DNA of 64,000 bases from Candidatus Sabulitectum sp. (GTDB taxonomy: Bacteria; Fermentibacterota; Fermentibacteria; Fermentibacterales; JCC-6), in NCBI GenBank assembly GCA_021107435.1, contig JAIOSV010000089.1, positions 39,388-103,387 of the forward strand, read 5' to 3'. Below, piece by piece: positions 1,711-11,873 of this stretch. The notes beneath the pieces are model-generated. The model did no database searches. It worked only from the letters and a program-made list of their open reading frames with translations, and was not told the origin of the DNA. A program made the translations under genes and the position numbers. Position 1 is the first letter of the stretch, and every line of letters begins with the position of its first letter.

Positions 1711-4143
1711 CTACCAGCGAATATCAAGCTGGCAGCGAATACCGTAATCGATGACATGATCACCGAAATCTGTTACCGTTTCATCCGGATCCCCCTGATA
1801 GTGATACTGATCATCGGGGTCCGGCCTGTAAAATCCGTTATGGGGAAAGAATGTGTCCTTCCTTAAAAACTTGAAACGAAGCTGAAGATTGTCCGAGAGA
1901 GTATTCTTCATGGTGACATAGAACTTTGTTCCGTCTCCATCGAGGAAATCAATCCCGGTATCCTCAAATTCCCACTGGCTCATACCGTTGGTTGTCCAGA
2001 AGGTACTTCCACCGAGAACAGAAAGCTCAGGGCTGAACTCATGCTCCCAGCGCATGGCCAGGAAACCGCCGGACATGTTTCTGTCGTCACCGTAAAGCGG
2101 GTTCGGAGTAAGCTCTACATTTCCATAACGCAACTCCATGCTGAAGTAATCTCCACCAACAGGAAGAGAAAATGTACGGAGGGTAAACTCCTGCGTACGG
2201 GAATTACTGGGCACTATGTCCTTGTGGTTGATTTTGTCCTGGAACTTGTACTTCAACCGGAATCTCACCGGCCACACGGGCCTGTATTCCACTTCGCCCT
2301 GGAACCGGAGGTTCTCTGTGTCGTAAGCCAGGTTCCTCCAGACATCCAGATAAACCTTCGTAAAGGTGACCTGCTGGCTGACTTGAAACCGGGTCTCCAC
2401 ATAAAGACCCTCTTCAGGTTTGGGAACAGGCAGATCCGCAAGCTGGGAAGCCAGTGGATCATTAAGCCTGTAGGACTTTTCAAAAACGGTGTCATCAAAT
2501 CTGTGCTGCTCGGCAAAAGCCCGGTTGTACGGATTCATGAAGTCGAGGGCATAGTTGCGGTAAGAACCGGTTAAATGGAACCAGTTGTTCTGCCAGCTGG
2601 CAGTGGTAATGCTTGCCCAGGCTCCATTGTCCTGTCTGACAGCCTCCACTTCCGCGCTCATGTTTTTGTAAACAGACTGGGCTGAACCGGCGAAGTAACT
2701 CTGTCTGTCACCGGAGGGCATGTGAGCATACTCGGGGCAATCCCAGGTGTATGTGTCATTGGGTATGTCCATTCCCGCGACTGAAGGATTCAAAGAATCA
2801 CTGTACTGTATTCCAAGTACTCCCACGCCAATTGCGGTTCCTACCGGGAGATAGTCTCCCAGATCGTAGAAGGCGTATCCGCCATATGTAGTTTCATTGA
2901 GAACACCACTGTATTCCTCCGGTCTGAACTCTCCCTGATAAAGCACATTGGGTGTACCATCCAGATTTGTAACAGCGTCCCTGGAAGTGAAAGAACCGAA
3001 GGCGTATCCCAGAACCGGCCCTGCAACAATCTGCGTTGCGGCACCGAAAAGCGCGTTCTGTCTGGAGGATGTCAGATCGGGGGTCAGCCCCCATGTTCTG
3101 TATGTGTTTCTGTACATCAGTTCGTCGGAGTTGTCTATTAGAAGTCCCTGGGCGAGTGAAAGCCTGTAGTTACCCGCTATCACCTGTCTGACAAATCCGT
3201 CATTCTGGAAAGAGAAGTAAGCTTTCCCGAGATCGAACCGGTTATTAACCGGCGCATCAAGACCAGCGATTAGATCGCTTCCCGCGATGGAATTTACTCC
3301 ACGGGAAAGTCTGGCGCCTGCCCGGTATCTGTCTCCCGCGCCAACTCTGACCCTGTGGCTGAAACCACTCACATCCCGGGCCTCAAGAAGCTGGGCATAC
3401 TCGGACTGGAGTCTTGTTATAAGCTCGAGACTGTCTATGGAAGTGGAAGAAAGTTCTCTTCCTCCATCAAGAATGTCCGAGATAGCGGATTTCATTTCGG
3501 AGATGTGTCCCGAAAGGTTGTCATCTATCCCGTCCCGCCCTTCATTGTCATCATAGATGAAGCGATATCCGCCGAAGAAATCGGTGGAAGAGTAATCAGG
3601 TTCCCGGGTTGAAATGTAGTCTTTCATATTGCGGTAACCGTAGTAGCGAAGGTATTCCGTGCTTCGAAGTGATGAGACGGATGACACCGGACCAAGAGTT
3701 CTCAGTCTGTTGTCGACCGAAGCCGCGTCGATAAAACTCACCCGGTCAAGGCTGCGAAGATCCCACCAGGAAACCTGATTGATGGGCATGGGTCTGAGAA
3801 GCAGATCCTCCCAGTACTCAACTGCGGCGTCTCCCGGACCATCCTCCTGTGCAAGCCTTTCCATAACATTAAGAATGTCCGATGAGATTTCCGGTTCAGG
3901 AGCAGGCAGAACTATGACATTCTCCCTGAGCCATCCAAGAGTAACAGGTGTGAATCCGGGAAGATCCACCACCTCGTATATGCTCTCCAGGCCTCCCGTG
4001 CCCTGTATGTAGTCATATAGAATCACTGCCTGTCCCGAAGTAAGTCCTTCCAGACCAAGCAGTTCCTCATAAGTGGCAGAGTTCAGATCGAACCCGGGGG
4101 GCACAGCGGCCAGCATTGAAGCAAGCAGCAGGCTAAAAAGCAT
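1711..4143 (-). CDS. Large outer-membrane beta-barrel protein with N-terminal ComEA-type helix-hairpin-helix domain
   Basis: 810-aa protein with signal peptide MLFSLLLASMLAAVPPG. It is followed by FDLNSATYEELLGLEGLTSGQAVILYDYI, which matches the ComEA/HhH_3 consensus (LNxAtxeELxxLpGig.xxAxxIvxyR). The remainder is Y/G/N/R-rich and beta-strand-like and ends in W. The gene overlaps the downstream gene by 10 nt. Confidence 0.55.
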   Translation of the reverse strand: MLFSLLLASMLAAVPPGFDLNSATYEELLGLEGLTSGQAVILYDYIQGTGGLESIYEVVDLPGFTPVTLGWLRENVIVLPAPEPEISSDILNVMERLAQEDGPGDAAVEYWEDLLLRPMPINQVSWWDLRSLDRVSFIDAASVDNRLRTLGPVSSVSSLRSTEYLRYYGYRNMKDYISTREPDYSSTDFFGGYRFIYDDNEGRDGIDDNLSGHISEMKSAISDILDGGRELSSTSIDSLELITRLQSEYAQLLEARDVSGFSHRVRVGAGDRYRAGARLSRGVNSIAGSDLIAGLDAPVNNRFDLGKAYFSFQNDGFVRQVIAGNYRLSLAQGLLIDNSDELMYRNTYRTWGLTPDLTSSRQNALFGAATQIVAGPVLGYAFGSFTSRDAVTNLDGTPNVLYQGEFRPEEYSGVLNETTYGGYAFYDLGDYLPVGTAIGVGVLGIQYSDSLNPSVAGMDIPNDTYTWDCPEYAHMPSGDRQSYFAGSAQSVYKNMSAEVEAVRQDNGAWASITTASWQNNWFHLTGSYRNYALDFMNPYNRAFAEQHRFDDTVFEKSYRLNDPLASQLADLPVPKPEEGLYVETRFQVSQQVTFTKVYLDVWRNLAYDTENLRFQGEVEYRPVWPVRFRLKYKFQDKINHKDIVPSNSRTQEFTLRTFSLPVGGDYFSMELRYGNVELTPNPLYGDDRNMSGGFLAMRWEHEFSPELSVLGGSTFWTTNGMSQWEFEDTGIDFLDGDGTKFYVTMKNTLSDNLQLRFKFLRKDTFFPHNGFYRPDPDDQYHYQGDPDETVTDFGDHVIDYGIRCQLDIRW

Positions 4144-4951
4144 ATGTCACCCCAATTGCGTGAGACAGATTAAGCTCGGGGTGAGTCTGTACTGAGTAGC
4201 AGACTTCAATACCTTCCACCTCAGCAGAGAAACCACCGGTAAGTACCGCAGGGCCGCTCATGGCTCCGGCGTACACAGTGAGAGGTCCAAGAGGAAGGGC
4301 TCCACCGACCCTTACCCTGGTTCCCCTGAAGTCCCTTGAAAGAGCGAATGCTGTAACAAGACCTGCCGCGGGTTCATAGGAAATTCCCGCATCCATCTGT
4401 CTGTGCATGTATTCTTCCGAATTGCCTATTCGAGACTCAAAAGGATTCTTTACAGCAGCGGCAAATGCCCATCTGTCGTACATGGTTACTCTAAATCCCG
4501 CGTTGACAGAAAAAGCCGTGGCACTTCCGTAACTGCTCACACCGTCTTTGATGTCGACTCTGGCAAAAACCGGCTGCAGACCGAACGAGAAATCTCTGGA
4601 AAGCTTTCCCGCAATTGTGGCGGCTATAACCTGCTCATTGTAAAGTTCTCCACCGAACCATCTCGCGCTTCCGGCAAGATTCCAGTTCTCTGTAACAGGA
4701 GCTCCGCCATCAATGCCTGCAGTGGCAAAATCAAAGTTGGTGTAAGGCATCTTCCCGGAAATTGTTACCGAGGGTTGATCCATGGCCGCCACTGACGCGG
4801 GGTTCCACATACTGCCTTCAAGCCCTGCCAGAACCACTCCTGTTCCACCCATGGCCATTGCCGGTATGCCCATCTCAAGTTCCTCAAAAGAGGCTGATGC
4901 AGGCAGAGCAAGTGCGAGAACCAGAAGGGTTGCTGTTATTGTAATTTTCAT
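4133..4951 (-). CDS. Outer-membrane beta-barrel protein (hypothetical; PorP/SprF- or PorQ-like size)
   Basis: 272-aa protein with signal peptide MKITITATLLVLALALPASA and a beta-barrel-like composition. It ends in a C-terminal F (…GVTYAF). It lies 11 nt downstream of the secreted-protein gene. Confidence 0.45.
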   Translation of the reverse strand: MKITITATLLVLALALPASASFEELEMGIPAMAMGGTGVVLAGLEGSMWNPASVAAMDQPSVTISGKMPYTNFDFATAGIDGGAPVTENWNLAGSARWFGGELYNEQVIAATIAGKLSRDFSFGLQPVFARVDIKDGVSSYGSATAFSVNAGFRVTMYDRWAFAAAVKNPFESRIGNSEEYMHRQMDAGISYEPAAGLVTAFALSRDFRGTRVRVGGALPLGPLTVYAGAMSGPAVLTGGFSAEVEGIEVCYSVQTHPELNLSHAIGVTYAF

Positions 4952-4961
4952 GTAATCCCTC

Positions 4962-5969
4962 CTATTCCAGCGGCGCCGCGATAACCACGGTCTCTGTTGT
5001 AGTCAGTCTGTCTCCATTGGGGGATACACCTTCAAGCATCAGCAGGTACTGACCCATGGGCAGATATTCATTCCAGTCATCCCTGCCGTCCCAGTTGAAT
5101 ATGTCACCGGCCGGAGAGTTAATTGCGAGATGCGCGAGATCTCTTCCTGCGCGATCATAGAGAGTAAGATTGAATCGAACTCCCTGGGGGCCACCGTATT
5201 CGATCTGCATTGTCTCACCCATGTCCGGGGCGAAGGGATTGCCTGAAACTTCCAGATGGAAGTAGTTTTCCACAGACGGGTTGAATATGATGATGTCGCT
5301 CTGATACCGTGGAAGCAGTTGATAACCGGAATCATAGGGCTCAGTAGAATCGTACTGCCCGCCTATTCCAATCATGAACAGTCTGGTTCCAACAGCAATG
5401 GCTGAAACATCAATTACGGTCGTTTCATTCACTCTGATTGGAATAACCGTCTGGCCGTTCCACACATCAAAGTTGTACCCGCCTCCGGCACTGGAAGGAG
5501 CTGTGGCCACTGTAACCCACTGTGTAAGATTTTGATTTCCAGCAGCTATGAGCATTCCCTCTATAGCTTCGGAAACCGGCTGATTCCTCACAAGCTGAAC
5601 AGGCGCGGGCATACCTGGATTACCCACATAGCTGTAATCATCAACCGATTCTGGAGATATCTCCGTAAGGCCGTTGTAGACCTTTATCTCGCCTGTAATC
5701 TCCCACTCCTCACCGGGATTCAGATTACCGGGAGCTTCGTAGGCGTAAACATTTATTCCGGCAGTAGAGTCCTGTACATAAAAGCTTACTCCATCTGAGG
5801 AAAACAGTCCAGTTTCACAGGTGGCAATTCCACTGATCGTCACTATCTCACCCAGCAGATCCGGTATTCCATTCCCGTCACTGTCAATCCTTGCCTCGGC
5901 TATGGTGAGAACCTGTGCGCCAGCGAAACAGCACAGCACCATCACCGGCAACAGAACCTTGATCATCAT
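4962..5969 (-). CDS. Secreted protein with OB-fold-like domain and FlgD-Ig/T9SS-type C-terminal domain
   Basis: Start is taken at MMIKVLLPVMVLCCFAGA (signal peptide). It has a DSDGNGIPD Ca-binding-like motif. The segment TISGIATCETG..FYVQDSTAGINVYAY..GEEWEITGEIKVYNGLTEI resembles the OB-fold of extracellular nucleases (YhcR/ExeM type). The C-terminal ~90 aa (…FNLTLYDRAGRDLAHL..WDGRDDWNEYLPMGQYLLML…) resembles a FlgD Ig-like / T9SS C-terminal sorting domain. Confidence 0.5.
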   Translation of the reverse strand: MMIKVLLPVMVLCCFAGAQVLTIAEARIDSDGNGIPDLLGEIVTISGIATCETGLFSSDGVSFYVQDSTAGINVYAYEAPGNLNPGEEWEITGEIKVYNGLTEISPESVDDYSYVGNPGMPAPVQLVRNQPVSEAIEGMLIAAGNQNLTQWVTVATAPSSAGGGYNFDVWNGQTVIPIRVNETTVIDVSAIAVGTRLFMIGIGGQYDSTEPYDSGYQLLPRYQSDIIIFNPSVENYFHLEVSGNPFAPDMGETMQIEYGGPQGVRFNLTLYDRAGRDLAHLAINSPAGDIFNWDGRDDWNEYLPMGQYLLMLEGVSPNGDRLTTTETVVIAAPLE

Positions 5970-5994
5970 TCCTCCCAATCCGGCCCCAGTGACA

Positions 5995-7347
5995 CTAGCG
6001 GCCTGTTCTAATCTCCGCATTAGCCAGATCGGCTGCTCTTGAGAGCGCCTCTTCCGGCATCATTCTTCCGTAAAGTACAATTTCTACCGATTCAGAAAGA
6101 AATGCCCTGCCGTCATACCAGGCTGTGATTTGAGGCTCAAACACCGCATAGTGCAACTGTTCGAGAACAGCCTCCAGGCCGGGGTATTCTTCTATTTTTT
6201 CTATAACTGCCGGATCCTCAAGACTTGAGACACGAGCAGGCAGATAGCCGCTTCCTGCGAACCATCTTGCCTGTATATCCGGTTGAGTAAACCACTTGAT
6301 GAATTCCCATCCGGCTTCCACCACACGGGGATCTTCATTCTCGAAAAGAATCACATTGGTTCCAGCGATATACACTGCCTGTTCACGCCCGGCGGGCAGC
6401 GGCGCTGTTCCTATTGTGAAAGTCGAGAGACCGCTCTCAGCTCTTCTTTCCATGTCACAAATCATGAAAGCCAGGCTGGTTACTGATCCCTGCACCTGCC
6501 CCACCCGACCATTGGCAAAAGCCTTCTGATGATCGTATCCGGAGGTAAGATATGCCGTGGAATCCACATAGAGTAATGCAGTCATGTACTCAAGAGCTTC
6601 AATACCCTGGGGAGAATTGAACGCAGTTTCTGTTGAATCAAAGTTCAAAAGAGATCCGCCCGCCTGAGCAAGAAGACACTCAAAATTCCAAACGGAAGTA
6701 CCGAATGCAGTACCGCTTCTGTCTCCTTCATCAAACAGATCACCGTCATTATTACCGTCATGGGTCAGAATCTGAAGCAGTTCTCTCTGTTCTTCCCATG
6801 TTGCAGCGGGAGAAACTCCCAGGCTGTCGAAAAGCTCTACGTTGTAATAAATCAGTGGCACACTTTTGTTGAATGGGAAAGAGTACACTTTTCCATCAAA
6901 AGTGTTGTTCTCCTGAAAGACAGGGAAGAAATCGTTCCACATTTCATCAGTGTATGAGGGATCCGCATCCATGAGAGAATCAAGAGGAACCAGGGCTCCA
7001 CCACGAATCAGCTGTGCTGTCCAGGTTTCATAGGCCTGGGCCATCCCCGGAGGAGAATCAGCCATGACTCCTGCCATAATCTTCTGACTGAGAGCACTGT
7101 AGTTGCCCATGCACACAGGCACAATCTCAATATCTTCATGCAGCGAGTTGAATTCAGCAATTAAAGTGTCTTCAAGCACATCACCCAGTGGGCCACCCAT
7201 AGCATGCCAGAACACAACCTGTACTGGACCGGATTCAGAATCAGTCTCCCTGCCGCATGCTGCGGCCAGCAGAATTGCCACCAGAATCGCAAACTGATAC
7301 CTCAGAACAGACCCCCTCTGCATAATGAAGATCGAAAATATTAACAC
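5995..7347 (-). CDS. ABC transporter substrate-binding protein (sugar-type, family 1), lipoprotein
   Basis: 450-aa protein with a lipobox (LLAAACG). It has the length and composition of extracellular solute-binding proteins, with conserved W/aromatic-rich motifs throughout. No adjacent permease or ATPase genes are present. Confidence 0.65.
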   Translation of the reverse strand: MLIFSIFIMQRGSVLRYQFAILVAILLAAACGRETDSESGPVQVVFWHAMGGPLGDVLEDTLIAEFNSLHEDIEIVPVCMGNYSALSQKIMAGVMADSPPGMAQAYETWTAQLIRGGALVPLDSLMDADPSYTDEMWNDFFPVFQENNTFDGKVYSFPFNKSVPLIYYNVELFDSLGVSPAATWEEQRELLQILTHDGNNDGDLFDEGDRSGTAFGTSVWNFECLLAQAGGSLLNFDSTETAFNSPQGIEALEYMTALLYVDSTAYLTSGYDHQKAFANGRVGQVQGSVTSLAFMICDMERRAESGLSTFTIGTAPLPAGREQAVYIAGTNVILFENEDPRVVEAGWEFIKWFTQPDIQARWFAGSGYLPARVSSLEDPAVIEKIEEYPGLEAVLEQLHYAVFEPQITAWYDGRAFLSESVEIVLYGRMMPEEALSRAADLANAEIRTGR

Positions 7348-7484
7348 ATAATATATGACTAACCGGTACCGGGTGAAGAGCAGACGAGAAATCAGGCTTC
7401 AGGGGAATTCCCAGCTTGTATATGTTAGTACTGTTAGTGCTGAGGTTATTTGTGGACACGCAATCATTTGAGGAGGTATTGCAA

Positions 7485-7946
7485 ATGAAGAAATTTACTC
7501 TTGCGACTGCTTTTATTCTTGCCGTGGCCTGCGGCGGCGCGGCACCCGATAAGGTTGTGAGTGAATTCATTACAGCATGGAACTTCGGGGAGGGCAGCAA
7601 TGTCGTCAATCTCATGTCAACAAAAGCTCTTGCCGACATGAACGGTACAATAAATATGCTGAAGCTGGCACCCGAGGAAGCTTCCTCTCAACTTGCCAGC
7701 AGGGGTATCATGTTTACTCCTGTGGAGGTCGAGTTTTTGACTCCGGGAGAATTCATGGGCGGAATGCTTCGCAACGTGAACCCCTCCTATGCCCTGCCTG
7801 ACTTCTCCAATGCGGAAATTGGAGAAACAGCAATCGCGGAAGACGGCAATACTGCTGTTGTTAACATCACTGTAGATGGCGAAACCCGGGAAATCCGGCT
7901 TGTTTCAGAGGGCGGCACCTGGAAGATTGATGAAATTCCCGAATGA
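7485..7946 (+). CDS. Small NTF2-like/DUF4878-like lipoprotein, paralog 1 of 4
   Basis: ATG at 7485 follows an AGGAGG RBS at 7471-7476. The protein starts MKKFTLATAFILAVAC (lipobox) and shares the motifs PDKVV..F..A, N.TAG and a C-terminal E(I/L)..V.EGG.WKID with the three following genes. Confidence 0.7.
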   Translation: MKKFTLATAFILAVACGGAAPDKVVSEFITAWNFGEGSNVVNLMSTKALADMNGTINMLKLAPEEASSQLASRGIMFTPVEVEFLTPGEFMGGMLRNVNPSYALPDFSNAEIGETAIAEDGNTAVVNITVDGETREIRLVSEGGTWKIDEIPE

Positions 7947-7995
7947 AATGAAAAGCACAAATTTCCTTCTTCTGGAATCGCGAGAACAAGCACAC

Positions 7996-8023
7996 TTGCA
8001 TCATTATCGTGAAAGGCTATAAT
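7996..8023 (+). promoter_or_regulatory. Sigma70-like promoter for lipoprotein paralog 2 (TTGCAT-N16-TATAAT)
   Basis: TTGCAT at 7996-8001 is followed by a 16-nt spacer and TATAAT at 8018-8023. The start codon is ~100 nt downstream at 8129. Confidence 0.5.
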
Positions 8024-8128
8024 TTACTTGTGAGGTTAATGCTATGGGTATTGCTGGGCGTTAATCAAAAATAATGTTGCGTATTAAGTAATCCATTCTG
8101 AATAACAATTTTAGGGAGGAATTTACCA

Positions 8129-8599
8129 ATGAAAAAGTTTGCTCTTGCTCTTGTGGCGGTTTTTGTTCTTTCAGCCGCCTGCGGAGGTGGCGGAACACCA
8201 GATCAGGTTGTGAAGAAGCTTTTTGAGGCGTTTGAGAATGCCGATGGCGACGCTGTTGTGGCCTGCTTGTCAGAAGAAGCTCTTGAAGACATGAATGAGA
8301 ACGTAGAGGAACTGAGGGAATCGCCTGAAGAAAGTGTCGCTTTCTTCGCCATGATGAACATTGAGATTACAGAAGATGAAATTGAGAACATGACAGCGGG
8401 AGACCTTGTATCCGCAATCCTCGGCAGTGAGGTGTTCACTGAAGAAATGCCTGATTTCAGCAATGTTGAGATTGGCGAAGCCATCATCGACGAAGAAGAC
8501 GCGAAAGTGCTTGTAACCATCGACGGTGATACTGAAGAGTTTGAGCTTGTCCTTGAAGACGGCAACTGGAAAATCGATGACGGAATGAATTTCATGTAA
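8129..8599 (+). CDS. Small NTF2-like/DUF4878-like lipoprotein, paralog 2 of 4
   Basis: RBS GGGAGG precedes the start. The protein starts MKKFALALVAVFVLSAACGGGG (lipobox). It is D/E-rich and has the conserved C-terminal FELVLEDGNWKIDD. Confidence 0.75.
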   Translation: MKKFALALVAVFVLSAACGGGGTPDQVVKKLFEAFENADGDAVVACLSEEALEDMNENVEELRESPEESVAFFAMMNIEITEDEIENMTAGDLVSAILGSEVFTEEMPDFSNVEIGEAIIDEEDAKVLVTIDGDTEEFELVLEDGNWKIDDGMNFM

Positions 8600-8616
8600 T
8601 TACTTTTCTTCTTTCG

Positions 8617-8642
8617 GGCGTCCTTCGGGGCGCCTTTCTTTT
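8617..8642 (+). terminator. Rho-independent terminator after paralog 2
   Basis: 7-bp GC-rich stem GGCGUCC/GGGCGCC (one G-U pair) with a UUCG tetraloop. It is followed by a TTTCTTTT run. Confidence 0.6.
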
Positions 8643-8706
8643 GTGCCAAATACAGTTTGCCCCGTCTGAAATACGATTCCTTTCGACGCCTGCGAAATGA
8701 ACACAT

Positions 8707-8734
8707 TTGCATCAGAGTTACAAATGGCTATAAT
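8707..8734 (+). promoter_or_regulatory. Sigma70-like promoter for lipoprotein paralog 3 (TTGCAT-N16-TATAAT)
   Basis: TTGCAT at 8707-8712 is followed by a 16-nt spacer and TATAAT at 8729-8734. The hexamers and spacing are the same as in the paralog-2 promoter. Confidence 0.5.
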
Positions 8735-8838
8735 CGGCCAACGATTCTGTTTTCTCGGTTATCAGCAAAATGTTGTTCGGCGGAGAGGTGATGTTTGCTT
8801 TTCTGTACTTGACAGCACCAATCAGGAGGGGTTTTCAA

Positions 8839-9315
8839 ATGAAAAAGTTTGCTCTTGCTCTTACGGCAGTTTTTGTTCTTTCCTTCGCCTGCCTTGGCGG
8901 CGGCGGAACACCGAACCAGGTTGTACAAAATCTTTTTGACGCAATTGAAGGCGGCGACGGCGACGCAGTTGTCGGCTGCCTTTCGACTGAAATACTTGAC
9001 GGTTTCGACGAAGGCCTTGAAGAATTAAAGGCAGATCCTGAAGGAACCGCCGCCATGGCAGTTATGATGGGCATAGAGATCACACCTGAAGAGGTTGCGG
9101 ATCTCACACCAGGCAAAGCTATTTCTATTATTCTCAGCAGTGAAATGATGACTTCGGAAATGCCTGATTTCAGCACCGTTGAAATCGGTGAAGCAGTTAT
9201 CGACGGCGAAACAGCAACTGTTCCGGTTACTATGGACGGTGATACTGAAGATATTGAGCTTGTCCTTGAAGACGGCAACTGGAAAATCGGTGGCGAAGGC
9301 ATGAACTTCATGTAA
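8839..9315 (+). CDS. Small NTF2-like/DUF4878-like lipoprotein, paralog 3 of 4
   Basis: ATG at 8839 follows an AGGAGGGG RBS. The protein starts MKKFALALTAVFVLSFACLGGGG and has the C-terminal IELVLEDGNWKIGGEGMNFM. The upstream part of the track ORF (from 8770) lacks an RBS or signal peptide. Confidence 0.75.
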   Translation: MKKFALALTAVFVLSFACLGGGGTPNQVVQNLFDAIEGGDGDAVVGCLSTEILDGFDEGLEELKADPEGTAAMAVMMGIEITPEEVADLTPGKAISIILSSEMMTSEMPDFSTVEIGEAVIDGETATVPVTMDGDTEDIELVLEDGNWKIGGEGMNFM

Positions 9316-9330
9316 ACTGCTACCTGTTTC

Positions 9331-9357
9331 GGGCGCTCTTCGGAGCGCCTTTTTTTT
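9331..9357 (+). terminator. Rho-independent terminator after paralog 3
   Basis: Perfect 7-bp stem GGCGCUC/GAGCGCC with a UUCG loop. It is followed by a run of eight T. Confidence 0.7.
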
Positions 9358-9476
9358 GACTGCTTGCAAGACGATACCCACCTCGAAACAAATACAGATC
9401 ATTGAATTATATTCCAGCGCGAATTCAGAATTTAATTGTCTCTGCTTTTCCAGACATATTTGTAAGGAGTCTGCAA

Positions 9477-9947
9477 ATGAAGTTTTTCTATCTTGTTCTT
9501 ACGACACTTTTCATTTGTATCACCGCATGTAACAGCGAAACTCCGGAACAGGTTGTAAAGATTTTTTTTGAGGCCTATGAAAACGCAGATGGAAACGCTC
9601 TTATCAATTGCATGTCCAGTGAAGGATTGTCAGATATCAATGATTACATTGATCAACTGAAAGAAACACCTGAAGAAAGTGCCGACTATCTGTCCATGAT
9701 AGGCATTGAAATCACAGCGGAAAACGTAAAGAACATGACTGCGGGCGACTTTGTTACCGCCATATTCAGCAGCCCTGTTTTTGCCGGCGAGCTTCCGGAC
9801 TTCAGTGGCGCAGAGTTCGGCAAGGCAGCAATCTATGGAAACAGAGCACTGGTTCCTGTTACAATGGACGGTAGCACGGAGGAGATAGAACTTGTTCTGG
9901 AGGACGGCAACTGGAAAATCGTTGGTGATGGTATGGAGATTCTGTGA
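9477..9947 (+). CDS. Small NTF2-like/DUF4878-like lipoprotein, paralog 4 of 4 (most divergent)
   Basis: ATG at 9477 follows an AAGGAG RBS. The protein starts MKFFYLVLTTLFICITACNSETPEQVVKIFFEAYENADGNALINC and has the C-terminal IELVLEDGNWKIVGDGMEIL. Confidence 0.7.
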   Translation: MKFFYLVLTTLFICITACNSETPEQVVKIFFEAYENADGNALINCMSSEGLSDINDYIDQLKETPEESADYLSMIGIEITAENVKNMTAGDFVTAIFSSPVFAGELPDFSGAEFGKAAIYGNRALVPVTMDGSTEEIELVLEDGNWKIVGDGMEIL

Positions 9948-10024
9948 GAGATAAAGCCGGAGAGTCAACAGATTCATGCAATTGATTCAACTAATCGGGC
10001 AACCCTCAGGTAAGCCAATATTTG

Positions 10025-10273
10025 TCAGTCCTTTGCAGCCGGACATGTAGAGCAGGTGGTGGAACATTCGGGGCACTCATTTGCAGGTGAAGTACTCTTG
10101 TAGTCAGTCTGGTAAAACCCGTTTCCCTTGAAGATAAGGCCGGCACCGGCACCGATAAGTCTTCTGACAATACCGCCGCATTCGGGACACTCTGTATCAG
10201 GCTCCGCGGACATGTTCTGGAATTTCTCGTATCTGATTCCGCACCTGTCGCAGATATAATCATATGTGGGCAT
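10025..10273 (-). CDS. FmdB-family zinc-ribbon protein
   Basis: MPTYDYICDRCGIRYE…CPECGG is the canonical FmdB/'putative regulatory protein' zinc-ribbon signature. There is a second Cys cluster (CPECSTTCSTC) at the C-terminus. Confidence 0.8.
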   Translation of the reverse strand: MPTYDYICDRCGIRYEKFQNMSAEPDTECPECGGIVRRLIGAGAGLIFKGNGFYQTDYKSTSPANECPECSTTCSTCPAAKD

Positions 10274-10339
10274 GGTAAACCTCTTTCTATCTTAAGAATT
10301 TCAGGAATTATACTACACGGTGCAACTCATTGAGTTCCC

Positions 10340-11320
10340 TTAACTGTCATCCAGCTTAATATTTCCTTTTGAAACCATGAGGCCTGCAATGATAACAGGG
10401 ATGAACTGCGTGGCGTGGAATACAATAGCCAATGCTTTCGCCTGGGAATCAGGTATTCCTGTGATAGCAGGGAAAAGAACACCTATTGCGTAGTGAACTG
10501 TTCCTGCGCCTCCAGGAGTAGGTATAAGCATTCCGAAACCGGCGAGGACAAGAATCAGCGGCGGGTAGAACCAGCTCCAGGGCATTTCTATTGCATAGAA
10601 CACAGGAACAACTGACAGACAGAGGGAAAGCCATACACCAATTGTTAGTGCTGATACTCTGACCATCTCTCCCGGGTCCTTTAGAATATCAAGACCGGTT
10701 GCAAAATCCAGCAGCATTTTCTCTATCTTCAGTGCAACCTTATCGAGATGAAATTTACGCAGGGGATATACCAGAAACCCGGCAGTGGCTTCATGCCATT
10801 TTCTTAAAGCAATAAGAATAAAAAGAATAACGATATAACCACATCCTGCCGCGATAAGCCCCCCCCTGACAGACTTAGATAGAGAATCCCACATGGCAGT
10901 CATTACCGCCAGAGTCAAACCTGTCAGGGCAAGCCCGTCAAACAGTCTTGCAATCACAACAGTCGCGAATGAAGAGACGAAGGGAATACCTGTTCTGCGG
11001 GAAATCAGTGCCGATCTTGCAAATTCCCCCAATCGTCCAGGCAAAACACTGTTGAGCATGAATCCGGTTAAAAGAGGTGGCGCAGCCACAGCCTTGCTCA
11101 CTTTTTTCATCGGAGAGAGAAGCATTACCCACCTGTAAACTCTGAAAACGTAGCTGGAGGCCAGAGCGGGTATAACAAGCAGAATGTAACCCCATCGGGC
11201 ATTGCTGAAAGCACTTCTCAGATCCGGCCAGTCTGTGTTCCTGAATGTAAGCCATATTGTTACCGCAGCGATGATTATCCCCAAAACCAGTTTAACAGCG
11301 TTCTTATTCTTTTTCAGCAA
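10340..11320 (-). CDS. Lysylphosphatidylglycerol-synthase-TM-like (flippase-like, UPF0104) membrane protein
   Basis: A multi-TM protein carrying the conserved LNSVLPGRLGEFARSAL motif of the LPG_synthase_TM/flippase-like family. The track ORF starts at ATG 11458 and would overlap gmhA by ~150 nt. A TTG at 11320 (LLKKNKN…) would overlap gmhA by only ~5 codons, so the start is uncertain. Confidence 0.6.
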   Translation of the reverse strand: MLKKNKNAVKLVLGIIIAAVTIWLTFRNTDWPDLRSAFSNARWGYILLVIPALASSYVFRVYRWVMLLSPMKKVSKAVAAPPLLTGFMLNSVLPGRLGEFARSALISRRTGIPFVSSFATVVIARLFDGLALTGLTLAVMTAMWDSLSKSVRGGLIAAGCGYIVILFILIALRKWHEATAGFLVYPLRKFHLDKVALKIEKMLLDFATGLDILKDPGEMVRVSALTIGVWLSLCLSVVPVFYAIEMPWSWFYPPLILVLAGFGMLIPTPGGAGTVHYAIGVLFPAITGIPDSQAKALAIVFHATQFIPVIIAGLMVSKGNIKLDDS

Positions 11321-11873
11321 GAATTTCCTCCAGCCCGTAACAGATAGCGTGAAAGGCCACAAGTATTTGTTCCTGGGTGTGGCTGGTTGCCACGGAGTGA
11401 GACTTCCAGTGAAGGTCGGCCCAGTTCGGGTTTTCGCACTGTGCTGAGGTAAACGCAATCACACGAAGTCCCGACTCCCGGGCAGTCTCCGCAGCTTTGA
11501 GAATATTCGGGCTTTCTCCACTGGTGGTAATCGCGATAAGAACGTCCCCCTCTCTGCCCAGAGCTTCCACCTGACGGGAAAAGACATTCTCATAACCATA
11601 ATCGTTGGCAATGGCTGTGATTACAGCAGGGTCCACAGTCAAGGCAATTGCTGCAATGGCTTCTCGATCCCGCCTGAACCTGCCTGCCAGCTCTCCAACA
11701 AAGTGAGAGGCATCTGAAGCACTGCCTCCATTGCCGCATACAAGTATTTTTTTACCATCGCCGAAACATCGGTTCAGTTCCTCAGTAATCTCCGCAACAG
11801 AGTCGACTTCCATCTCTGTCAGGAGAATTTTTGCTTTTTCGATGTATTCTTTTACAGCATTTTTTGCAGACAT
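11304..11873 (-). CDS. gmhA: Phosphoheptose isomerase (SIS domain)
   Basis: 189-aa SIS-domain protein with the motifs ILVCGNGGSASDASHF, AIALTVD and VLIAITTSGESPN. It matches GmhA/LpcA closely. Confidence 0.85.
   Translation of the reverse strand: MSAKNAVKEYIEKAKILLTEMEVDSVAEITEELNRCFGDGKKILVCGNGGSASDASHFVGELAGRFRRDREAIAAIALTVDPAVITAIANDYGYENVFSRQVEALGREGDVLIAITTSGESPNILKAAETARESGLRVIAFTSAQCENPNWADLHWKSHSVATSHTQEQILVAFHAICYGLEEILAEKE

Follow-up and report, generated by a model that had tools for sequence, protein, structure and literature searches.

The window analyzed here, a 64,000-nucleotide stretch of DNA from Candidatus Sabulitectum (Fermentibacterota), an uncultured marine-sediment bacterium, carries four consecutive plus-strand open reading frames, p1 to p4, which encode paralogous proteins of 153–158 amino acids with lipoprotein signal peptides (table 1). 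The open reading frame calls, together with the AGGAGG-type ribosome-binding sites that precede the ATG starts at 7485, 8129, 8839, and 9477, bear out an earlier note on this DNA that had read four genes in a row; the start that it gave for the first of them, 7416, merely marks the TTG at which the open reading frame mechanically begins, when it is the ATG at 7485 that has the ribosome-binding site. The zinc-ribbon gene of FmdB type that the same note had placed downstream on the opposite strand is indeed found there. Pairwise amino acid identity among the four proteins is 42–65% over 151–156 residues, which is far above chance. A shared N-terminal block and an identical C-terminal block, ELVLEDGNWKI, had been described for all four copies, and this holds for p2, p3, and p4 but not for p1, which reads PDKVV...GEGSNVVNLMS and EIRLVSEGGTWKI at these two places. 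As a matter of fact, the divergent, fast-evolving copy is p1 (42–43% identity, vs. 49–65%) and not p4, as had been proposed.

Table 1. Coordinates of the genes and putative regulatory elements of the array and of the genes that bound it (positions in the window).
Feature	Position	Strand	Remarks
ABC-type extracellular solute-binding protein gene	5995-7347	-	Left boundary of the slot; SBP_bac_8, E 6.5e-34; outside the array
p1	7485-7946	+	153 aa, class B; fast-evolving; has neither its own promoter motif nor its own terminator
p2 promoter-like element TTGCAT-N16-TATAAT	7996-8023	+	Direct repeat; class A orthologues of L002 and L006 are preceded by it too
p2 5' leader	8024-8128	+	105 nt; diverged from the common leader of the relatives; of the leaders, fits the leader model least well (41 bits)
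p2	8129-8599	+	156 aa, class A; the most acidic of the copies (net charge of the mature protein -35)
p2 intrinsic terminator	8616-8643	+	8-bp GC stem, TTCG loop, T-run; hairpin 8616-8635; direct repeat; equivalents after orthologues
p3 promoter-like element TTGCAT-N16-TATAAT	8707-8734	+	Conserved upstream of class C copies
p3 5' leader	8735-8838	+	Contains a long, conserved hairpin whose outer stem (about 8772-8816) stops ~10 nt short of the AGGAGG
p3	8839-9315	+	158 aa, class C; most widely retained class
p3 intrinsic terminator	9331-9358	+	Hairpin 9331-9350; conserved after class C orthologues
p4	9477-9947	+	156 aa, class D; without TTGCAT-N16-TATAAT or terminator; convergent with FmdB
FmdB-type zinc-ribbon gene	10025-10273	-	Right boundary of the slot; Zn_ribbon_8, E 2.3e-15; context

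All four proteins begin with MKK or MKF and a hydrophobic stretch, after which come the lipoboxes that the earlier reading had assigned to them (AVAC in p1, SAAC in p2, SFAC in p3, and ITAC in p4), so that the positively charged N-terminal region, the hydrophobic region, and the lipobox with its final cysteine that characterize lipoproteins are all present. The PROSITE-type lipobox pattern is satisfied by p1, p2, and p3, as it is by 70 of 81 family members; p4 misses it solely through a cysteine at position −4 and fits the four-residue consensus I-T-A-C. The predicted mature proteins, of about 138–143 amino acids, would be held at a membrane by their lipidated N-terminal cysteine and a glycine-rich linker. 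A second cysteine, C46, was considered as a functional residue and set aside, for distant relatives do not conserve it and p1 lacks it. With net charges of −21 to −35 per roughly 140 amino acids, p2, p3, and p4 are the most acidic products among the 55 long open reading frames of the window, and the comparison of net charges agrees with the view of p1 as the least acidic copy. Acidic proteins are frequent in the wider family (median net charge −14), in which many distant relatives are, like p1, only mildly acidic.

These proteins resemble DUF4878 (Pfam PF12870), a family of the NTF2-like superfamily with Cj0202c of Campylobacter jejuni (PDB 3K7C) as its prototype. Their scores against this profile are 26.2 bits for p3, 21.8 for p2, 16.7 for p1, and 14.5 for p4, and only p3 passes the gathering threshold of 24.1. 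Compared with DUF4878, the array proteins have some 45–55 extra helical residues (about 48–106 of p2), running from the N-terminal helices to the sheet, and this helical insert explains why the profile matches are split into two pieces around it and why only p3 rises above the threshold. Of the remaining weak Pfam matches, almost every one is to a related NTF2-like family (DUF4829, DUF3828, SnoaL_2, and Tim44 among them); NCBIfam, PADLOC, and a profile-versus-PDB sequence search returned nothing significant. AF2 models of p1 and p2 (pLDDT 89 and 85, respectively) have the same order of helices and strands, and both display the alpha + beta cone and match NTF2-like structures, which, along with the Pfam score of p3, supports the NTF2-like or DUF4878-like fold initially suspected. 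The signature of DUF4878, a glycine about 25 residues into the domain and a tryptophan near the C-terminus (Eberhardt et al. 2013, PMC3924330), is also found, with Gly40 and Trp147 (p2 numbering) invariant in 80 family members; D39, S48, S100, D109, S111, E143, and K148 are the conserved polar residues. On this basis, each protein is predicted to be an NTF2-like cone of the DUF4878 type enlarged by the helical insert, and the N- and C-terminal blocks common to the copies would form the structural signature of the fold family, with the insert as the variable part. A noncatalytic binding role in secreted or lipid-anchored proteins has been inferred for DUF4878 (PMC3924330).

Around p2 and p3, the repeated unit extends well beyond the coding sequence: each lies in a cassette of roughly 711 bp (repeat period 710–715 bp) composed of a promoter-like element, a leader of ~105 nt, the coding sequence, and a terminator that reads GGGCG..CTTCGG..CGCC followed by a T-run. 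The promoter motif and the terminator motif each occur at just two sites in the 64 kb, versus 0.02 and 0.00 expected, respectively. Both are conserved around the class A, B, and C genes and the single-copy genes of relatives, and TTGCAT-N16-TATAAT is found upstream of eight of the eight class C copies with upstream sequence (the ninth, in L010, ends at a contig edge). These elements, the promoters being assessed as sigma-70-type −35/−10 hexamers with a spacing of 16–18 nt, and the leader are putative and read from motifs and conservation. In the leader alignment, which spans classes A, B, and C, RNAalifold found a stem with 79.8% of cells paired versus 37–50% in slid controls and a covariation of 0.30 versus at most 0.20, the latter statistic being inflated, as one of the aligned sequences had itself supplied the structure. 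A covariance model of the leader matches array leaders only, and a permissive Rfam scan of 7200–10400 returned no known leader RNA (TarB scored 25–27 bits on the terminators, vs. a gathering threshold of 80).

The conservation of these elements around orthologous copies corroborates the claim that p2 and p3 each have their own promoter and terminator. The extension of this claim to the whole array as a set of independent transcription units thus stands, by motif conservation, for p2 and p3, and fails for p1 and p4, at which neither element was found. Transcription of p1 may read through into p2. Other than the p3 terminator, little of the sequence aligned upstream of p4 is conserved. By eye, a weak promoter candidate, TTGAAT-18-CAGAAT, can be seen at 9402–9431. 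In relatives, the p4-type gene abuts a gene of the fifth class, which suggests that these two could be cotranscribed. An invertible promoter or another form of phase variation was considered and rejected, as there is a single inverted repeat, within p3, and the promoters have no tandem repeats on either side. Overall, p2 and p3 would each have a cassette for their expression, with promoter, structured leader, coding sequence, and terminator, and this complete expression cassette is most likely the unit that was duplicated, p1 being a fast-evolving copy that would have lost its own promoter, leader, and terminator.

The slot between the ABC solute-binding protein gene and the FmdB gene is syntenic in ten related Fermentibacteraceae genomes, where it holds one to five copies from five orthology classes, as well as pseudogene remnants (at 7713–7832 of L003 and 3270–3401 of L002). 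The solute-binding protein gene adjoins the array in all loci whose sequence reaches that side (L001–L003 and L005–L009), and FmdB is syntenic in nine of the ten; the right side of L003 is rearranged, with large secreted-protein genes in place of FmdB. Classes A, B, D, and E have bootstrap values of 95–100% (100% for class D), and class C orthologues are present in 9/10 related loci. Synonymous divergence between paralogs is saturated (dS of at least 1), and the dN/dS of orthologues, at 0.05–0.25 (0.05–0.22 for class C, that of p3), indicates purifying selection in every class; the copies are therefore old duplications retained by selection, as had been anticipated. Purifying selection extends to the variable middle of the proteins, as the insert has a dN/dS of 0.10–0.24, and diversifying selection there was rejected. 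The same synonymous divergence, the separate orthologues that each copy has in independent MAGs, and the exact p1, p2, and p3 proteins on record from several sources, among them a Candidatus Sabulitectum sp. MAG, exclude an assembly artefact. The region may thus be pictured as a birth-and-death array in which lineages would keep one to five copies through differential loss, and in which short gene-conversion tracts would homogenize the ends of p2 and p3. The synteny of the slot is limited to close relatives and permits no inference on functional links to the neighboring genes. In distant relatives, the contexts differ (L011 has two genes in tandem, L012 and L015 one each), and a functional link through their neighbors was discarded too, since FGE-sulfatase domains recur only loosely (fusions P0092 and P0093, and a neighbor in L015).

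From the perspective of genome organization, a close parallel is the lpl cluster of tandem lipoprotein-like genes of Staphylococcus aureus (Tsuru and Kobayashi 2008, PMC2568036), in which, as here, paralogous lipoprotein genes lie in tandem, their copy number and order vary between genomes, and conserved segments within the genes appear to act as recombination substrates. However, the two protein families are unrelated, with no Pfam family in common; the conserved recombination segment of lpl is central, whereas in the present genes it is the two ends that carry the conserved or converted tracts, around a variable middle; and lpl sits on a genomic island, when the present array occupies a fixed, syntenic chromosomal slot. 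From DUF4878 itself, the array differs, besides the insert, in its far more acidic proteins and in being a multicopy array with regulatory signals for individual genes.

The reading that we favor, and which we regard as fairly probable, is that of a birth-and-death array of diverged, nonenzymatic, envelope-anchored NTF2-like binding modules that was built by duplication of a cassette. Accordingly worded as a mechanism, p1 to p4 would be binding modules of the cell envelope that split in the course of divergence into five or more stable functional classes, each of which probably recognizes a ligand or partner of its own, and the charge of these proteins suggests a cationic or protein partner. 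The characterized secreted NTF2-like relatives Tai3 and YbjP bind proteins, not small molecules. Tai3 is a T6SS immunity protein and YbjP a partner lipoprotein of TolC, and both belong to DUF3828, against which p1 scores 14.3 and p2 16.8 bits, far under the cut-off of 26, and p3 and p4 have no match; neither is known as an array of four or five copies. The array could also be a stockpile of orphan immunity genes whose products, like Tai3 or the endopeptidase inhibitor IseA, inhibit cationic cell-wall hydrolases or interbacterial toxins in the periplasm. Yet none of the related loci has an effector (amidase), a hydrolase, or a secretion-system gene next to the array; its neighbors there, where the sequence reaches them, are the same solute-binding protein and FmdB genes, except on the right side of L003; PADLOC gave no match; the classes are old and vertically inherited; and a dN/dS of 0.1–0.24 in every region bears no signature of an arms race, all of which makes such a function quite improbable. 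The Escherichia coli NTF2-like lipoprotein YbjP docks 3:3 onto TolC, and each paralog could similarly be an outer-membrane accessory lipoprotein that docks on a different channel or complex. We hold this to be unlikely, because the DUF3828 profile is not matched above its cut-off, no gene for TolC or any other outer-membrane protein is linked to the array, and sorting to the inner or the outer membrane is not predictable for Fermentibacterota.

Two further possibilities turn on what the insert or the charge might do. The insert could widen the cone so that it forms a lipid-binding cavity like that of MlaC/Ttg2D, in which case the array proteins would shuttle or sense envelope lipids or carry other hydrophobic ligands. 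This appears doubtful: the MlaC profile (PF05494) matches none of the four copies at E values up to 10, generic NTF2 proteins outscore MlaC, no mla operon is present, and the copies, at ~135 amino acids, are ~40–50 residues shorter than the MlaC targets (172–190 amino acids) and predicted to be lipid-anchored, whereas MlaC and Ttg2D are soluble. Moreover, the neighboring genes are on the other strand, with a synteny seen in close relatives only, and a lipid carrier would leave the strongly acidic surface unexplained. That surface, on the other hand, is what would matter if the fold were a mere scaffold for an abundant polyanionic coat or cation buffer, with negative charge in high copy at the membrane surface, that binds Ca2+/Mg2+ or repels or absorbs cationic peptides, with copy number tuning its dosage. 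The net charges of p2 to p4, the most acidic of the window, the acidity common in the wider family, and the strong expression signals predicted per gene (a −10 hexamer without mismatch, AGGAGG as the ribosome-binding site, a hairpin in the leader, and a terminator that looks strong) are all in line with it. Nevertheless, we judge it very improbable, as p1 and many distant relatives are just mildly acidic, and as the conservation of distinct orthology classes at the sequence level, with a dN/dS of ~0.1 in the insert, argues for specific rather than bulk-charge functions.

A more speculative and rather unlikely proposal concerns the promoter/structured-leader/terminator cassette shared by three paralog classes, which might constitute an undescribed cis-regulatory RNA that coordinates hyper-acidic envelope lipoproteins in Fermentibacterota, for instance in a cation or envelope-stress response. 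If this were true, these proteins would be a dedicated system for binding cations or cationic partners, and not generic proteins of unknown function.

The array is an instance of a known fold and not a new kind of system, and it neither opens a new mechanism nor settles a standing question. What it offers is a clean example of a small envelope-protein family growing and shrinking in an uncultured phylum, with a whole cassette duplicated, a fixed slot, five old classes differentially lost, and hints that the ends of the genes undergo conversion. Its proteins also define a subfamily of DUF4878, enlarged by helices and strongly acidic, most of which escapes the current Pfam thresholds; with 1,481 cluster representatives matching at E values up to 1e-3, the annotation of many "hypothetical" lipoproteins could be improved.

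The lipoprotein genes p1–p4, numbered from left to right, make up a well-conserved, orderly array of paralogs whose fold family is known and uncharacterised; the observation made in the earlier note is real and its interpretation largely right. The ORF listing gives four plus-strand ORFs in succession at 7416–9947 of the window, each with an ATG after an AGGAGG-type ribosome-binding site, and inspection of their N-termini (MKK/MKF, a hydrophobic stretch, then AVAC, SAAC, SFAC and ITAC, respectively) bears out four consecutive lipobox genes. A PROSITE-type lipobox pattern is satisfied by p1–p3 and by 70 of 81 family members; p4 misses it solely through a Cys at −4, its ITAC fitting the four-residue consensus. 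The most divergent copy is not p4, as had been claimed, but p1, because its amino acid identities to the other three are just 42–43%, against 65% for p2–p3, 54% for p2–p4 and 49% for p3–p4. Likewise, the shared N-terminal motif and identical C-terminal block attributed to all four copies hold for p2–p4 (ELVLEDGNWKI) and fail for p1, which carries EIRLVSEGGTWKI in their place. That p1 is the least acidic copy is correct: its mature net charge is −13, against −35, −28 and −21 for p2, p3 and p4. In fact, p2–p4 are more acidic than all other long ORFs of the window (net acidic excess per residue 0.13–0.21 vs. a long-ORF median of 0.02), and their orthologues are comparably acidic. Four antisense ORFs over these genes are most likely by-products of a GAA/GAT-rich coding strand, not genes, and the locus is explained without any of them.

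Coordinates of the array, its signals and neighbouring or related features (window positions unless a related locus is named)
Feature	Location	Strand	Details
p1	7485-7946	+	153 aa; class B
p2	8129-8599	+	156 aa; class A
p3	8839-9315	+	158 aa; class C
p4	9477-9947	+	156 aa; class D
Promoter motif	7996-8023	+	upstream of p2
Promoter motif	8707-8734	+	upstream of p3
p3 leader	8735-8838	+	outer stem ~8772-8816 kept
Terminator core	8616; 9331
p2/p3 shared-codon 5' ends	8129-8188 / 8839-8898
p2/p3 shared-codon 3' ends	8530-8590 / 9243-9303
Antisense ORFs	8203-8712; 8835-9311; 9025-9402; 9630-9977	-
Conserved genes downstream of solute-binding-protein gene	526-1698; 1711-4143; 4133-4951; 4962-6020	-
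LPG_synthase_TM ORF	10340-11458	-
SIS-domain gene	11304-11873	-
Leader in relatives	L002 1988-2084; L007 3204-3299; L009 7908-8003; others
Class A remnant	L003 7713-7832		in-frame stop
Class E remnant	L002 3270-3401
Three large secreted-looking proteins	L003 9587-14451	-
FGE-sulfatase gene	L015 9673-10491

From a structural perspective, Pfam returned only weak matches for p1–p4, almost all of them NTF2-like (DUF4878, DUF4829, DUF3828, SnoaL_2, Tim44), with p3 scoring 26.2 bits against DUF4878, over the gathering score of 24.1. AlphaFold2 models of p2 and p1, built from an 80-sequence alignment, are confident (pLDDT 85.3 and 88.8) and agree in the order of their elements, six or seven helices and then a four-stranded sheet, and the best Foldseek match of the p2 model in the PDB is the DUF4878 prototype 3K7C (E = 4e-4). 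The structural alignment spans ~90–100 of the ~135 mature residues; the 45–55 extra residues are helices (~48–106 in p2) that separate the N-terminal helices from the sheet, and it is because this insert interrupts the domain that the DUF4878 HMM match is split in two. The NTF2-like/DUF4878-like fold put forward earlier as a possibility is supported. Moreover, Gly40 and Trp147 are invariant in the family and match the published DUF4878 signature; therefore, the shared blocks first noticed largely represent the structural signature of the fold family.

p1–p4 are strongly predicted to be exported, probably lipidated NTF2-like DUF4878-type proteins, with no family-level link to any enzyme; DUF4878 has been argued to be a non-catalytic secreted or lipid-anchored ligand-binding domain (PMC3924330). 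We infer that they are binding modules whose helical insert would be the part distinguishing the classes and whose partners may be cationic; read generically, the array would encode several envelope binding modules whose functions have diverged. Narrower roles are kept as rival readings: the envelope analogues that have been characterised have protein partners (a T6SS amidase inhibited by Tai3, and TolC, onto which YbjP docks), and MlaC-type relatives bind phospholipid. However, neither a Tai3-type inhibitor role nor YbjP-type docking onto TolC is favored by the array, where no copy reaches the DUF3828 HMM threshold and neither an effector nor a TolC gene is linked, and MlaC-type phospholipid binding meets a similar lack of any MlaC HMM match above threshold and of linked mla genes.

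The proteins p1–p3 are identical to deposited proteins of a Candidatus Sabulitectum sp. MAG (phylum Fermentibacterota), a genus described as a strictly anaerobic fermenter of marine sediment (10.1101/146886). A word-indexed profile search recovered 81 relatives, nearly all of 150–160 aa; the few whose source is named, as well as all ten loci found with the same profile, come from MAGs labelled Sabulitectum, Fermentibacteraceae or unclassified. When 1.84 billion cluster representatives were searched exhaustively with a profile, 1481 matched at E ≤1e-3 and 129 at E ≤1e-10, and the 91 single-domain-sized proteins among the best 150 matches have a median net charge of −14 and a lipobox in 54 cases. 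Four more distant relatives inspected directly (28–39% identity) keep the lipobox and full length, insert included; a tandem pair of distant relatives lies on one 2.5-Mb contig, and no functional name is on record for the more distant relatives. In P0092 (733 aa) and P0093 (1078 aa), distant relatives of the domain are joined to the C-terminus of FGE-sulfatase-domain proteins, and at L015 a separate FGE-sulfatase gene lies ~3 kb from the relative's gene, an association that may provide a weak functional link.

The slot housing the array is syntenic in all ten recovered loci of related MAGs, flanked on the left by the ABC solute-binding-protein gene and four upstream genes and on the right by FmdB, LPG_synthase_TM, SIS and RmlD genes, with a rearranged right flank in L003, where three large secreted-looking proteins replace FmdB. 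A neighbour-joining tree resolves five orthology classes (bootstrap 95–100% for A, B, D and E), distributed as B-A-C-D in the window, A-B-C-D-(e) in L002, B-C-D-E in L007, A-C-D in L006, B-C-D in L004 (a contig end cuts the first copy), C-D-E in L010 (the contig starts just upstream of the first copy), (a)-B-C in L003, B-C in L001 and a single C in L009; lowercase letters denote remnants, and the single copies of L005 and L008 form their own clade. The B-A order of the window is the inverse of that in L002 and L003. The duplications are older than the divergence of these species and copy-number differences arise mainly by loss, which is ongoing in related genomes, as the L003 and L002 remnants show.

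Maintenance of the duplicates, as proposed earlier, also agrees with substitution rates: Nei–Gojobori dS among the window paralogs ranges from 1.06 up to saturation, dN/dS within classes is 0.05–0.25, and each class is maintained by purifying selection, regional dN/dS giving no sign of diversifying selection (insert 0.10–0.24, sheet 0.07–0.11). Window p1 stands apart, with a dN to class B orthologues of 0.34–0.43 (0.08–0.20 among those orthologues) and departures at 5 of the 29 positions conserved in the family, the conserved Cys among them; its class's promoter, leader and terminator are all missing, and it retains an intact ORF, ribosome-binding site and confident predicted fold. Between p2 and p3, identical residues share identical codons at 16/16 positions in the last 20 aligned codons and 14/18 in the first 20, against ~50% in the middle. 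The C-terminal tract of window p3 is nearer window p2 (0.94) than the four compared class C orthologues (0.80–0.87), and at its 5' end window p2 is nearer class C genes (0.80–0.83) than its own class A orthologues (0.73–0.78). These ends, reminiscent of the recombination-driven evolution of the Staphylococcus aureus lpl lipoprotein cluster (PMC2568036), may be gene-conversion tracts, which is suggestive only because they are short (54–60 nt).

p2 and p3 are linked by a direct repeat (710–715 bp period) that takes in the promoter, the 5' and 3' ends and the terminator. The promoter motif TTGCAT-N16-TATAAT has two sites in all 64 kb (0.02 expected), and the terminator core GGGCGyyCTTCGGrrCGCC also has just two (0.00 expected). 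In the ten related loci, nearly all class A, B and C copies, as well as one of the two single-copy genes, have the promoter motif 71–105 nt ahead of them, and nearly every gene of classes A, B and C or of the single-copy type has a GC hairpin with a T-run behind it. The promoter motif was not found before any class D or E gene, no terminator was found for p4, and neither signal was found around p1. The independent transcription claimed for the array thus appears well supported by conservation for p2 and p3, uncertain for p4 and doubtful for p1. In relatives, the gap from class D to class E is ≤27 nt, which suggests that these two are co-transcribed.

Just two features might open a new direction: the extreme acidity and a hairpin in the 5' leader, the region between promoter motif and start. 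Class A, B and C leaders are homologous in alignment and form a long imperfect hairpin, ending ~10 nt before the ribosome-binding site, with compensatory changes. Scored over a structure of 17 pairs, 79.8% of cells are paired (37–50% with partners slid) and the covariation score is 0.30 (≤0.20 in slid controls), statistics to be read with the caveat that the structure was derived from one of the aligned sequences; 0/500 shuffles reached the observed value. The window p2 leader has diverged from the shared one. No Rfam family corresponds to the leader, and its covariance model, searched against 227 kb, matched solely in front of array genes.

As for the surroundings, the four minus-strand genes at the left have no Pfam match at E ≤1e-3 and show 64–93% identity across the related genomes whose recovered DNA includes them; the C-terminus of a 352-aa protein of this block looks, by eye, secretion-sorting or FlgD-Ig-like. 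The LPG_synthase_TM ORF shares 155 nt with the SIS-domain gene upstream of it, and since its Pfam match begins at residue 58, translation probably starts downstream of the mechanical ORF start. Finally, GC skew in 2-kb bins is negative almost throughout the window, the cumulative skew dropping steadily to −2.98, and the single clearly positive skew (+0.12) and the lowest GC (0.451) both fall in bin 8001–10000, where most of the array lies.
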